From: Balanoglossus misakiensis
Lineage: Eukaryota > Animalia > Hemichordata
Length of the DNA stretch: 64,000 bases
NCBI GenBank assembly: GCA_040954595.2
Contig: CM082579.2
Coordinates: 8,917,625-8,981,624 of the forward strand
Direction: 5' to 3'
Shown: in pieces, positions 5,191 to 19,032 of the stretch
How positions within the stretch are numbered: the stretch's first letter is position 1
How the letters are laid out: each line of letters opens with the position of its first letter
Notes under the pieces: generated by a model
What the model saw: only the letters and a program-made list of their open reading frames with translations
Database searches by the model: none
Told to the model about the DNA's origin: nothing
Position numbers and translations under genes: made by a program

Positions 5191-8100
5191 ATGGGTCTGC
5201 AGAAGAATCCGAGCCGGTTCGCTGTTCTACGGATCGTTTCCATTGCTCTTCTTGTGACAGTACACGTTGAAGGTAAGCAAGTGAGACACGTGGCACGTCT
5301 CTGTAGCAATCATCTGTCAAGTTCCATCCTTATACAAACAGTCTTGGTTTGGGGTAATTGTTGTCGTGCCCTCGTTTAATTATTGACTCCTCAAATCTGA
5401 ACTTCTGCCATAAGAAGTGTACATCCAAGTTGGAACTGAGTATAGGAAGCGCGCTGAAATGCCATGGTATGGGGAATGTATATGACACTGTTTAAAAAGG
5501 GACGAAGACCTGATAATATGTGTGGTCAATGGAAAGTGGCGACAATGGTTCGTTTATCTCAAATCTTGAACTGTGGAAATTCCATAGCCAAATTAAGAAG
5601 TTTTCAATTTCCAGGTTGTAACAAAAATAACAAAAAATCATGGCAACACGCATGCATGCGTGCATATACCCATTTATCTGCATTCTGAGTGAACCGCGGT
5701 CGCAAAGAAAGAATTTCATAGTTTGAGACTGGAGGGATTGAACTTTCCAGTTAAACTTGATTTATGTCTTAAGATATGCGTAACCTTGACACCGCCTATA
5801 AAACAACATCTTAAAATGCAGCCATGACTCAATCATAAGTGTAAGCATGCGTGCATCGAAATCTGGGAACCACCCACAATGTGACGTTGCTCTCGCTCTG
5901 TTCTCCCGTCACCATTTGTTTCTGGCTAAAGTGCTGAACAAGACCGCCATTTATATTCCATGACCGCTTCGTGACCTTATCTTCTATGACAGTGTGTGCA
6001 TGGTATTCGACATAAGAATTTTCTGCAACTGTTACGACACGCTGGCCGTTCAGTTCCGAAACAGGGCAGTGAGCAAATAGACTTACCGAATGGCTCGCTT
6101 TGGTGAACCAACCAGCCCAGCACGCAACAAAGACGGTCAACAATAGGCACATCACACGTTATTTCCTTGCTTATGGAAACTTATAATTACTACAACTAAA
6201 CATTGGTAAATATAAAATGACTGTATACTGAGGAAAAAACACAGTAAAATAAATGACTACCTTAAATATGACCAGGTGTGGGAAATGAAAAACTAAAGTC
6301 CAAGCTTCCGTAGCGCACGACGAACGCGGCCAGCACCACGGCAGTCCCAACAGCGACGTTCAGTCCGAGTAGCGTTCTGGCACAATTCCCCGGTAGACGG
6401 CACGGCTTTCGGACGAATTCCCCATGAGGTAGCACGACTTCTGGGCGCGGTTTCCAGACCAGGACAGCATGAAATACAGCACAGCTTCTGGGCGCGGTTT
6501 CCAGACCAGTGTATCAGGAAATAAGGCACAGCTTCCAAGCCGTTGAGGAACAGAACAGCTCACACGGGCAAGTCCAAATTAGTAGCTACGCCGCAACACA
6601 ACGTGCGGGCTTTTTATATGGGGAAAATAATGAATGCACCACACCTGGTCACGCAAATATTCAAATTACGAAAGTAAGCGAAAACACACCTGGTCACAAA
6701 ACAACAGCAAACTTCTCCTACGTAACAAACAGATGATAATATAAAGTAATTTATAGTCAACCCTGCGTACAGGTCTGTGTGTTCCATGCGTAACACGGCC
6801 TCCACCACAGCCCTGCAAGGCTCCTTAGACAAAACTGGCGCGTCTGCTGTCCGGATCGGGACGGTCGTTTTTATGCCGAAATTCATTTATATCGTGGCAA
6901 AATCCATCCCCTGCCTACCACTACTCTCTAACTGACCCTAGAAATGATGCGATTTACTTAGGTTAACGTCCGAACCGAACGTCGGAGACTTTTTTTGTAT
7001 GTGTGTGTTTACCCATGGAGTTCGCCATATTGAATACAACGAGTTTTTATCCATAGGCGGGTAAATACAAAACAGTTTAAAAAAAGCGAGTGGTTAGGAC
7101 GTTAGAAAAATGTAATCACATCATTTCGGTGGTCGGTTCGAGTTTGGAGATAGACAGGGAAAGTATTTTATCCCGATAAAGTTGAATTTCGGCTGAAAAG
7201 CTGCGGTCCCGATCCGGACAGCAGACGCGCCAGTTTCAATGGTCTGTGGAGCCTAGTAGTACAGCCTTGTACGCAGGGTAATTTATCGTATGATCATTCA
7301 TCCTCTACGTGCTACTGATGAATAATAGTAGTGACAACACTAACTGGTAGGAGATGTATACATAGACTAAGAGTAGCACCATGCAGATAGATCAGTATGT
7401 GGCGAGTTTGATGGCAAATGCGAAAGTTCCTACCATAAATCGCATTCGTAATGAAGTGACATCCGTAACGCTTGTCTTTATTTTCAGCATTGACGCAAGA
7501 TGACGTTGAACATATTTTCCGGTACATCATATCCAACGAGAAATTCCACAATGCGAGGTACGATTCGAATCCCGCTCCTGCAATCCGCGAAATGGCTATT
7601 GGGATCGGATTTAAACTAAACGGCGAAAATGCGAGGGCAGACTTTGAGGGCGCACTACCCGGTGTTAATTTCGACGACGTTAGGTACGGACTGCGCACTC
7701 TCACCGATGGCGAAATTGCAGAATTATTCAAGGTTGGTTTTCACTGTCGTCTACTGTTTTGAGTTGTTCGATACCCGCTCGTGCCGTTTAGCCCATATTT
7801 CGCTAGCCCATAAAATCAGAGGAATTCGCTTTTATACTACGAAGAATATAAACCACATGCCAAAATAAAGGATGATTGGTAAACACGCATGCATGTAGTC
7901 TTGGAGACGATTTGATTTTGACGCTACTAAAACATTGGTATGGCCGTATGCTGTAGTTTTACCGCCAATCACCACTATCCGGACTGTTTCATTGTTTATA
8001 ATCATGCATGTCTAGTTTGAACTCTCTACATACATGTACATGTATTTGTGTATAACAGATTGCAAGCCTACCCAAACACATAGAAAGGGTTAGAAATCTG

Positions 8101-17100: not shown

Positions 17101-19032
17101 CATGAAAACATAGTATGTCTCTTTGGTTTTAGTGGTAGCATGTGGATACATACCTGCACCCCCGAACACAGAAAAGACAGGACTGACCTACATAGAAGGT
17201 TCAACCTTGATGTTCGACTGCCTTCCTGGGTACAGTTACAAAAATGGTTCGAGGGAAAGAGCGTGTCGAGGAGATGGGACTTGGAGCGGAACTGACATAA
17301 CGTGTGACAGTAAGTCGTCAAAAGTTTTCAGCGAAAGTATATTTATTACGCCAGTATGAGTGCCCATCTTTGAAGTCCTCTCTAATTCCTGTAGCCTTAA
17401 CGACAAACCATTGTCAAAACTGACTCCACTGACAGATATTTGCCGTGATCTAGAAGCCCCGGTCAACGGGTCCAGGAAGTCAACCGGTACGGACCATGGA
17501 TCTGCGATCGACTTCAGTTGCGACGAGGGTTTTGATTTGGTCGGTTCGGAAACAAGGAGGTGCCAAGACGATGGCTCCTGGGATGGTGACCAGCCGATAT
17601 GCCGGGGTAAGTTAATCATGCACCAACTGACAAAGACGTGTTCTGGTGGAAAGGGTGACTTCTAGTAGGAAATGCCTATCCACAGCAGACTTCTCTTTCA
17701 TGCAGGTTGGCAGAGGGATATCTCAGATTACAGTGTCTTCGTACATGTACATGTACAGAGCAGCCTATTTGCAGGGATATTGGATCGCATGGCCTGTCTC
17801 CAAGCTTTCATGTGAATGCGAGAGAAGGCTGAGTTTTTACAATCGCTACATTGGTTCGTTTCGCTGGTAAAAACGTCTGTCGACTTGCTGAGTGTATTAT
17901 AGTACGTTGAACACCACAAACATGTATGTTCACGTAAGCGATGTATATGGCTAAATAACTTTGTATTCTCATCTTGTAGTGGTCACGTGCCACCCTCTTA
18001 CGGCTCCAGATAACGGCACAGTAACTTCCACGGGTAATGAGTACCTGTCAGTGACCACATTGTCGTGCGACGTTGGCTTTGTGCTCCGTGGATCCAGGGT
18101 CCGTATTTGCAGAGGGGATGGTGAATGGGACGGCAAAGTGACGTCATGTGCAGGTATGTATACAGTGTGCATGTACATGTTTTCTGTTTCGCGGGTACCA
18201 ACGAATTTTAGATCGAATGGTTTCTGACCAGCTAAGTAACATTTCATTATGACATGATTTACCCCCGCAGTTGTCCATTTACCATGTTGTACTTCAACAG
18301 CAAGCAACATTTTCACCAAGCATAAACGATATCTCCACAGGTGACTCCGGGGATTCCGTGTCAGCAGCAATCATCGCTGGCTGCATCGTGGCAGCACTAC
18401 TTATCATTCTCATAGTCGTCGTCGTCATCTTGCTATGTCTGCGTAAACAAAAGACTCAAAGTCCAAAGGGACCAACTCCTCAACTTGTGGACAAGGGGTA
18501 AGTTTACACGTTAGGGCATGCACATCTCTCACTAGTGCACTATACACAACGCAAATCGAATAGACAGGCGCCTTATTGATGTCGTCATCATCGGCCGACG
18601 AGAAGCTACGGAGGGGATCGTACGTGCTTATGTGGCTAGCATTTTCATAGCAAAAGAATTACAGTTAAGCTGAATGCTATTTGATGAGAAATGAAAAAAA
18701 ACACGTCTTCTTTATGTATCAAACGGACAGAGCTGAAAAGAATTATAAAGCACACTTAGTTAATTTAATGTTAAAATATTTCCTTTATATCCTGCTTAGA
18801 ATCTGCGAACAGTTTCAGGACTGTTAACGTTACTAACGCCATTGGATTTTTTACATGAATCTTTCCGTGTTTGACATCCCCAATATCTCAAATTCCTCTC
18901 AGGACCAACGTCACTTTCCACGAGCTGTTGCCAACTGCACCGACCGCATCACCGCCCGGTCTCGACAACCCTGCCGTTGAAGTGGACGACAGTTTAACGA
19001 AATCTACACACCAAGAACGTTACATCATTTGA
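5191..19032 (+). CDS. Type I membrane protein: signal peptide - phage-lysozyme-like domain - NIDO - IPT/TIG - AMOP - vWD - 3x Sushi/CCP - TM - short tail (Mesh/SUSD2/MUC4-like); this copy is interrupted by a TE insertion
   Basis: Exons: 5191-5272 ([27 protein letters not shown]); 7488-7732, 8059-8305, 8606-8707 (lysozyme-like); 8949-9076 (ELFYPYG..GD..DDGSS), 9537-9824 ([21 protein letters not shown]), 10311-10448 ([20 protein letters not shown]), 10756-10921 (NIDO); 11404-11652 (IPT, MLGG..I.V.GPCF); 12005-12282 + 13768-13796 (split exon); 14251-14508, 14660-14940 ([17 protein letters not shown]); 15283-15423 (FGDPH..TLDG..YTFNG.GEF), 15623-15787, 16084-16341, 16716-16976 (vWD region); 17133-17309, 17436-17606, 17980-18153 (Sushi); 18341-18497 ([26 protein letters not shown]); 18903-19032 (TGA). 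Phases are compatible throughout. Confidence 0.88.
6760..7279. mobile_element. Fold-back MITE in intron 1 of the lysozyme/Mesh-like gene
   Basis: Termini ACCCTGCGTACA / TGTACGCAGGGT; perfect 31-bp inner IR AAACTGGCGCGTCTGCTGTCCGGATCGGGAC (6832-6862) vs 7206-7236; further imperfect pairing inward. Confidence 0.8.
7488..8707 (+). other. Phage/T4-lysozyme-like (GH24) domain encoded by three exons
   Basis: [17 protein letters not shown]...MAIGIGFKL...[54 protein letters not shown]...WTQVC...RLRKNCQFF follows the T4L order IFEMLRIDE..IYKD..TIGIGHLL..ITKDEAEKLF..YDSLDAVRRCALINM..WDEAA. Recognised by eye; no HMM was run. Confidence 0.72.
11762..11830. repeat. Compound (AAAC)n(AGAC)n microsatellite
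   Basis: Direct reading. Confidence 0.95.
12283..13767 (-). mobile_element. Non-autonomous Helentron-associated element (HINE/DINE-1-like) inserted in a coding exon
   Basis: 11-bp subterminal IRs CGGGCCCAAGC (12304-12314) / GCTTGGGCCCG (13752-13762); extra IR TACGGGCCCAAGCC (13731-13744) forming a hairpin at one end; (GAAA)n microsatellite ~13693-13710; short stem-loop GCTGCAAGCAGC (12286-12297) outside the other subTIR; internal tandem cores (AGTAGGTCAAAGGTCA at ~12432, 12670, 12940; AAAATCCAATATGGCCGCC at ~13084, 13239, 13538); AATTAA at both junctions; no long ORF. Confidence 0.8.
15944..16020. repeat. (CAT)n microsatellite, intronic
   Basis: About 25 CAT units; explains the poly-Asp ORF on the minus strand. 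Confidence 0.97.

Follow-up and report, generated by a model that had tools for sequence, protein, structure and literature searches.

A T4-type lysozyme domain, probably catalytically dead, at the head of a Mesh/SUSD2-type membrane protein of acorn worms

How a lysozyme-type domain came to head an animal membrane protein, and whether it still cuts anything there, are the questions raised by a gene of the acorn worm Balanoglossus misakiensis. The gene lies in a stretch of 64,000 nucleotides of contig CM082579.2 (positions 8,917,625 to 8,981,624 of the forward strand; hereafter the window), where it occupies positions 5191-19032 of the + strand and has 21 exons. Judged by its canonical splice sites, it is an in-frame fusion of a lysozyme-type exon cassette to the NIDO region of a Mesh/SUSD2-type protein. 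By profile and modelled fold, exons 2-4 encode a domain of the T4/GH24 lysozyme type, probably one without catalytic activity.

The fusion gene and the fold of its first domain

A database search with a NIDO exon led to a Ptychodera flava protein, XP_070554202 (73% identity; hereafter P0001), whose N-terminus matches exons 2, 3 and 4 of the window gene as well. The features of the gene, and of a paralog beside it, are as follows.

5191-5272, + strand: exon 1, start codon and signal peptide, phase 1 end (from splice ends and hydropathy)
7488-7732, + strand: exon 2, N-lobe of the GH24-like domain, 57% identical to P0001; E45 (Glu11 of T4 lysozyme; codon 7538-7540), K46 (Gly12 position), Y52, D53, A64 (Thr26 position), G66 and G68 (Gly30 position)
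8059-8305, + strand: exon 3, long helix and C-lobe, 64% identical to P0001; Cys149, Cys156 and Cys173, and V143-G144 in place of the Tyr/Phe-Arg pair of active relatives
8606-8707, + strand: exon 4, last helix with conserved R196 and Cys201, then a linker with Cys221, phase 1 end; 71% identical to P0001
8949-9076, 9537-9824, 10311-10448 and 10756-10921, + strand: exons 5-8, NIDO (Pfam PF06119 on exons 6-8)
11404-11652, + strand: exon 9, IPT/TIG (Pfam PF01833)
12005-12282, + strand: exon 10, the part before an insertion, Ig-like region
12283-13767, - strand: non-coding element within exon 10, Helentron-associated (HINE/DINE-1-like) by its anatomy
13768-13796, + strand: stranded final 29 nt of exon 10, followed at 13797 by its true donor, GTGAGT, phase 2
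14251-14508 and 14660-14940, + strand: exons 11-12, AMOP (Pfam PF03782)
15283-15423, 15623-15787, 16084-16341 and 16716-16976, + strand: exons 13-16, vWD with GDPH, and C8 (Pfam PF00094, PF23263)
17133-17309, 17436-17606 and 17980-18153, + strand: exons 17-19, three Sushi repeats (Pfam PF00084)
18341-18497 and 18903-19032, + strand: exons 20-21, membrane helix, short cytoplasmic tail and stop (from hydropathy)
3073-3010 (signal peptide), 2628-2378 and 443-230, - strand: first three exons of a head-to-head paralog, with identical intron phases

Exons 1-9 have AG/GT ends throughout, those of the first five (5191-5272, 7488-7732, 8059-8305, 8606-8707 and 8949-9076) included, and no stop interrupts the frame across their joins. 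A GTGAGT donor closes exon 4 in phase 1, and the NIDO region starts with exon 5, just as an earlier, sequence-only reading of this DNA had proposed. Exons 2-4 (residues 28-225) are flanked by phase 1 introns on both sides; a phase 1-1 set of exons is the pattern of a module movable by exon shuffling. Hydropathy of the whole protein has a signal-type stretch at about residues 8-30 and a single membrane stretch at about 1285-1320, and Pfam finds NIDO, IPT, AMOP, vWD, C8 and three Sushi domains on the downstream exons. Leaving the cassette aside, the order of signal peptide, NIDO, IPT, AMOP, vWD with the GDPH site (residue 835), Sushi and membrane helix is that of Mesh, SUSD2 and MUC4, with which the gene also shares the GDPH site and the single membrane helix. 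It differs from them in the slot before NIDO, which is filled by the lysozyme fold; human SUSD2 has a somatomedin B domain there, and in a SUSD2-like sea-urchin relative (Lytechinus, P0003; 46-57% identity in NIDO, IPT, AMOP and vWD) the slot is empty, NIDO following directly after the signal peptide with no lysozyme-type domain.

The lysozyme family membership of the cassette appears to be visible only through intermediate relatives and through the fold. Pfam PF00959 (Phage_lysozyme), on which the sequence-only reading had counted as a check, matched neither the single window exons nor P0001, nor three further acorn-worm proteins described below (P0009, P0010 and P0011). Single window exons found no lysozyme among PHROGs or PDB sequences, the P0001 domain alone matched no PDB sequence, and a word-based homolog search with exon 2 gave 62 candidates, none at E 0.01. 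In contrast to these direct searches, phmmer with the Ptychodera domain against 1.84 billion representatives returned 33 matches, with best E down to 5e-10. Five of these are acorn-worm NIDO proteins, the query counted, and the other 28 are short proteins, in 19 of which Pfam recognizes Phage_lysozyme at E <0.01, 15 of them beyond the curated cut-off. Against a profile built from 25 microbial relatives, which were chosen through P0001 and so do not make a fully independent test, the spliced window domain scores 122.1 bits, the paralog 75.9 and T4 lysozyme 53.8; 200 shuffled sequences gave a single match to the same profile, at 4.3 bits. The profile of a 37-row alignment matches T4 lysozyme at E ~1e-16. 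The RefSeq names of the acorn-worm proteins ("uncharacterized", "mesh-like", "SUSD2-like") follow from the domain being hidden from Pfam.

The fold was modelled with AlphaFold on P0001 residues 30-224, which are 64% identical to the window domain, the full alignment giving a pLDDT of 92.8 and the acorn-worm rows alone 83.8. T4 lysozyme ranks first for both models in Foldseek, at E 0.0013 and 0.0067, so that the proposed fold held in rank and fell short of E 0.001. In VIA on the model, the best 45 of 50 rows have Z between 8.6 and 11.7 (root-mean-square deviation 3-5 Å, about 145 residues aligned), and by title or chain range these 45 are T4 lysozyme, fusion constructs of it and other GH24-type muramidases. 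ESM Atlas has Phage_lysozyme/Pesticin clusters at 0.83, which we take as a lead only. The likeness to T4 lysozyme and GH24v (PF00959) consists of the two-lobed fold, a helix ending in Glu, a hairpin with two glycines and the long connecting helix, and the T4-type motifs named in the sequence-only reading are in place (E45, Y52-D53, I65-G68). The acorn-worm domain differs in lying below Pfam detection, in a longer loop before the hairpin, in added cysteines, in its acidity and in altered residues at Thr26, Gly12 and positions 104-105.

Unnoticed in the sequence-only reading, the arrangement recurs in three other acorn-worm genera. Six database models, P0001, P0010 and P0053 from Ptychodera, P0009 and P0021 from Saccoglossus and P0011 from Glandiceps, carry the lysozyme-type domain and NIDO on a single polypeptide, joined by a linker that can be aligned, and the fusion genes are, on these models, a small acorn-worm family. 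P0021 represents a second architecture, in which the lysozyme-type domain and NIDO are followed by a C-type lectin end; P0053 is an additional Ptychodera copy from a search of longer proteins. Contamination was considered as a source of the lysozyme exons and ruled out, because these exons are split by introns and common to several genera; the domain is intron-bearing and domesticated, as first supposed. Saccoglossus and Ptychodera are reported to have been separate for over 370 million years (PMC4729200), and since RefSeq models of Ptychodera, Saccoglossus and Glandiceps share the join, the fusion would be older than that. Of 7,995 candidates scored in the longer-protein search 12 were matches, NIDO occurring with the domain in Ptychodera alone; as P0009-P0011 escaped it although they formed part of the query, the absence of the fusion from echinoderms and chordates is weakly supported.

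It might still be argued that the lysozyme-like exons belong to a secreted gene of their own, or form an optional cassette, and that the fusion is an artefact of gene prediction. Exons 1 and 5 could be spliced together in frame, exons 1 and 4 both ending in phase 1, and read-through of exon 4 (window positions 8708-8790) would reach a stop at 8731-8733 and an AATAAA at 8782, so that a short secreted form with the lysozyme-like domain alone is possible. These signals are not above chance: AATAAA occurs 0.78 times per kb in the window, and one in the 241 nt of intron 4 is unremarkable. Intron 4 has three ATGs, none of them in the NIDO frame, and all six models, from three genera, have the fusion with its alignable linker. 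We consider this explanation highly unlikely.

The paralog, which like the exon 10 insertion goes beyond the sequence-only reading, has a more decayed GH24-like domain; its remainder lies outside the window. It groups with Glandiceps P0011 with support of 100/99. The start codons of the two genes are 2.1 kb apart in head-to-head orientation, and a shared promoter is possible.

The catalytic site and what the head may do

The GH24 triad is reported to be Glu-Asp-Thr (PMC8228626, PMC2976769), in which the Thr, Thr26 of T4 lysozyme, positions the catalytic water (PMC2976769, PMC8228626, PMC5606550). We counted residues at these and other cleft positions in the acorn-worm copies, of which six cover the N-lobe and eight the C-lobe, against 54 other relatives, a set that contains near-copies and is not one of independent rows. 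The catalytic Glu, E45 at the end of the first helix of the focal protein, is retained by 6/6 acorn-worm copies (52/54 in the relatives), and the neighboring Gly12 by 0/6 (49/54). Thr26 survives in one copy of six, as compared to 51 of the 54 relatives; the focal gene has Ala64 in its place and four other copies have Val or Ile. Gly30, invariant in the relatives (54/54), is kept in 4/6 copies and replaced by Arg in the window paralog and in P0011. In the C-lobe, a Tyr or Phe at position 104 is found in 3/8 copies against 53/54, and Arg, Gln or Asn at position 105 in none of the eight against 51/54.

The family Asp (or Cys) stands nine residues after the Glu and six before the Thr. D53, eight residues after the Glu, aligns with a conserved Asp of a long-loop GH24 subfamily discussed in the next section; the Asp six residues before the Thr position is absent from the focal gene, which has Pro/Ala at that site. 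Both hairpin glycines, 28 and 30, are present (G66, G68), and the focal copy, P0001, P0009 and P0010 all retain Tyr18, Gly28 and Gly30. R196 stands in a column that is Arg in 52/54 relatives and in all 7 acorn-worm copies covering it, T4 lysozyme being unaligned there; an Arg is reported to be salt-bridged to the catalytic Glu in GH24 enzymes (PMC8228626).

Taken together, the altered residues suggest that the lysozyme domain is probably catalytically dead. The proposal of a tethered antibacterial enzyme is weakened accordingly, the catalytic Thr and the substrate-site Tyr/Phe-Arg pair having been lost across the acorn-worm copies, and its companion, the role of a peptidoglycan sensor, is possible. 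That P0001-like copies, at least, are working membrane-tethered muramidases lysing bacteria in mucus or gut is in our estimate unlikely. The Glu is universal among the six copies, P0001 keeps Glu, Asp and Thr, Asp20 is reported to be dispensable in some GH24 enzymes (PMC8228626), bacteriolysis has been demonstrated for one bivalve phage-type lysozyme (PMC5303276) and intact GH24 relatives occur in Mercenaria, Mytilus and Owenia. Set against this are Ala at the Thr position and Pro/Ala at the Asp site of the focal copy, Val or Ile in four others, and the loss of position 105 in all eight.

Loss of catalysis would not mean loss of use. The domain is as well conserved as its neighbors (64% identity to P0001, against 54-77% for the other domains of the gene) and so appears to be retained for some function, and its cleft may still bind in the copies that keep Tyr18, Gly28 and Gly30. 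As the best explanation, and one held with rather less than even confidence, we propose that the cassette is a catalytically dead, non-cutting head that binds bacterial cell-wall glycan at a microbe-facing epithelial surface; the binding itself we infer.

Several points weigh against this proposal. The join is known from splice signals and RefSeq predictions, and among the latter P0009 and P0053 have no proper N-terminus. The window domain was scored by profile, the fold models being those of P0001, for which no Foldseek match was found at E 0.001 or better (best 0.0013), and near-copies swell the 54 comparison rows. Gly12 is a soft criterion, because the T4 RefSeq record (L027:704-1198) has Arg at lysozyme position 12, while the PDB chains shown have Gly; in the literature searched there was no report on a change of Thr26 to Ala or Val. 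P0001, the nearest relative, has the whole triad and might still be active. The cleft-lining Tyr/Phe-Arg pair of active relatives is lost, and all eight acorn-worm domains carry a net charge of -10 to -20, as compared to 3/54 others at or below -10; two intact Owenia domains are mildly acidic too, and acidity alone proves little. The lost pair, the acidity and the Arg at Gly30 together fit a domain that no longer meets peptidoglycan.

The same observations speak for a second use of a dead domain, in which the lysozyme fold persists solely for structure or for binding proteins (it might cap NIDO, or be a recognition head for adhesion between cells at a septate-type junction) and bacterial wall is no longer bound. 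Besides the lost pair, the cleft Arg of two copies and the acidic surface, it would account for the new conserved cysteines, for the retained Glu, explicable as the partner of the conserved Arg in a salt bridge (reported in PMC8228626), and for the domain accompanying NIDO in the second architecture (P0021); fly Mesh is a septate-junction protein (PMC6231084). It is less easily reconciled with the cleft glycines that persist in 4/6 copies and the Tyr-Asp pair in three after more than 370 million years, or with the sea-urchin P0003, where NIDO lies directly behind the signal peptide, so that the scaffold needs no head. We regard this alternative as a serious one, close behind the first, if on balance doubtful.

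Relatives of the domain, the exon 10 insertion and the neighboring genes

The nearest microbial relatives of the cassette are not T4 lysozyme, a distant long branch in our tree, but a GH24 subfamily with a Tyr-Arg-Gly motif found in Nanoarchaeota genomes and metagenome contigs. The source was looked up for 16 of the 28 short matches. Nanoarchaeota accounted for 7/7 genome loci found with a pattern, the pattern having been taken from that subfamily. Locus scans with single proteins gave no match, IMG/VR gave 19 weak loci, and cultured phages gave weak Vibrio, Alteromonas and Citrobacter matches only. Nanoarchaeota are reported to be rich in peptidoglycan hydrolases (PMC12352652). Members of the subfamily (Woese- and Pacearchaeota among the Nanoarchaeota, metagenomes, Mercenaria, Mytilus and Owenia) are the best sequence matches of the acorn-worm domain and many share its longer loop; they differ in being mostly stand-alone, with intact Glu-Gly and Thr, and none is joined to NIDO. 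Among the long-loop proteins (L001-L007; P0028) many have a hydrophobic N-terminal stretch and one has LysM, and those of Woese- and Pacearchaeota are candidate archaeal muramidases.

The Owenia copies differ from the acorn-worm ones in their partner. In Owenia fusiformis P0048 and P0055 the GH24 domain is followed by a cysteine-rich linker and another GDPH-bearing domain, a second pairing of lysozyme and GDPH; the catalytic motif is intact in P0048 and altered at the Gly12 and Thr26 positions in P0055. Mytilus P0054 and P0056 are phage-type lysozymes in a pteriomorph bivalve, a group in which PMC5303276, having checked Crassostrea gigas only, found none. Saccoglossus is credited with an "other non-conventional lysozyme", given without detail in PMC11576321.

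A tree was built from the 52 rows that remained of 63 after nine near-copies and two fragments were removed; its base is open, with long branches at T4. Acorn-worm domains form one group (support 99/97), and molluscs with Owenia another (91/87). A single animal clade is neither recovered nor rejected (P value of the approximately unbiased test, p-AU, 0.35), the sequences of PMC5303276 not being among the tree rows. The domain may have been acquired once, long ago, and then lost in places, or transferred separately at least twice, and from the 52-row tree no donor of the domain can be named.

The closest published parallel is that of the bivalve co-opted phage lysozymes (BCPL), which are described as having introns, as duplicated and as fused to domains of PGRP, MALRD2-like and HSPG-like type (PMC5303276). 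They share with the acorn-worm gene a phage-type GH24 domain in an animal genome, introns, duplications and fusion to host extracellular domains, and differ in being reported as active or untested lysozymes of bivalve hosts (PMC5303276). The acorn-worm gene has instead a Mesh/SUSD2 partner, a membrane anchor, an eroded catalytic site and a deuterostome host.

The frame of the window gene does not run unbroken to the membrane anchor. Exon 10, which starts at 12005, lacks a proper donor at its apparent end, and a mobile element of about 1,485 bp (~12283-13767) separates its body from its final 29 nt. Inverted repeats of 11 bp (12304-12314 and 13752-13762) lie near both ends of the element, which also has a hairpin whose arms measure 14 bp (13731-13764), a short palindrome near 12286-12297, a four-base microsatellite near 13690-13712 and internal tandem repeats; its ends lie, with an uncertainty of a few bases, at an A/T-rich site, and it has no coding capacity, the longest stop-free frame being 99 codons. 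Criteria for Helentron-associated (HINE/DINE-1) elements are given as subterminal inverted repeats, a palindrome near the 3' end, an A/T-rich site, a microsatellite and lack of coding sequence (PMC4067079). The insertion agrees with this anatomy, its inverted repeat measuring 11 bp against 12-15 bp in PMC4067079, and appears to be of Helentron-associated type. A simple miniature inverted-repeat transposable element bounded by the 11-bp repeats was rejected, as excision there shifts the frame. No further copy of the element was found elsewhere in the 64-kb window.

Removing the element in silico leaves the frame open to its stop, for a protein of 1,374 residues. Motif spacing across the excision is then 20 residues, as compared to 20 in P0053 and 21 in P0001, P0009 and P0010, and the next conserved Trp lies at the distance seen in P0053. 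Read as it stands, the allele runs for 664 residues and stops short of AMOP and the membrane anchor, and it would give an anchorless product of that length, or none, unless a cryptic donor were used; predicted GT donors at 12244, 12265 and 12301, joined to an AG at 14254, would preserve the frame. The insertion is likely young, because every other exon is still open, and may belong to a single haplotype.

The rest of the window holds other genes. A sialyltransferase gene (~19640-22400, - strand; Pfam PF00777 on two exons) lies tail-to-tail with the fusion gene. Then comes a gene (~26400-41100, + strand) in which two kringles are found together with a long run of WAP-repeat exons; it probably also has a membrane helix, near 40900-41000. 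The region ~42700-56000 has pentraxin exons at 42741-43511 and 55212-55928 (- strand), WAP at 48522-49037 (- strand) and a C-type lectin exon at 51934-52332 (+ strand), and looks like a cluster of secreted immune-type domains. An exon with low-density lipoprotein (LDL) receptor class B repeats lies at 62484-63047 (+ strand).

A possible role at the epithelial surface

The history of the head can be tentatively drawn. An animal ancestor would have acquired a secreted GH24 muramidase from a microbe or a virus. The gene would then have gained introns, and, before the split of Saccoglossus and Ptychodera, the phase 1-1 cassette would have been shuffled into a Mesh/SUSD2 gene behind its signal exon. 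Duplications would have produced several copies, in which catalysis decayed and the two-lobed cleft persisted. The mature protein would be cut at GDPH and held together by disulfides on the membrane as SUSD2 is, with the head displayed towards mucus or gut lumen, where it might capture or sense bacteria. Release of the N-terminal part by GDPH cleavage had been suggested earlier; this is weakened by human SUSD2, whose fragments are reported to remain disulfide-linked at the surface after the cut (PMC6696261), for which reason we take the lysozyme head to be tethered rather than shed.

Non-catalytic PGRPs and alpha-lactalbumin are precedents for such a course, being folds of cell-wall enzymes that have lost catalysis and now serve as receptors or regulators. 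Theirs are the T7-type amidase and c-type lysozyme folds, different from the one seen here, and the comparison is one of analogy only. The proposal could be carried further, to a new class of peptidoglycan receptor in which a disarmed phage-type endolysin is mounted on Mesh and the paralogs are tuned to different ligands, possibly feeding a Mesh-Duox-type control of gut or pharynx microbes; control of Duox and of gut microbial load is reported for insect Mesh (cited in PMC6231084). Such a receptor would be convergent with PGRPs, on a different fold. In this full form we think the idea rather unlikely to hold.

The kind of event is known, fusions of phage lysozyme to host domains having been published for bivalves (PMC5303276). 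Neither the lysozyme-NIDO-AMOP fusion nor its pseudoenzyme state was found in the literature searched, with subscription journals mostly outside it, and the words "lysozyme", "NIDO" and "AMOP" do not occur in the main text and two supplementary files of the hemichordate genome paper (PMC4729200). Within that literature, the Mesh/SUSD2 partner, the membrane anchor, the likely pseudoenzyme state and the conservation across acorn worms are undescribed.

A mucus-feeding deuterostome lineage would thus have retained a microbial enzyme, now likely a pseudoenzyme, on a surface protein of its epithelia for more than 370 million years. The acorn-worm copies form a graded series, from triad kept through Thr lost to cleft blocked, which makes the question of binding cheap to test. 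If cell wall is not bound, an antibacterial fold would have been turned into an adhesion or scaffold module. If it is bound, acorn worms would present a new design of pattern recognition and a handle on how Mesh-family proteins might sense bacteria.

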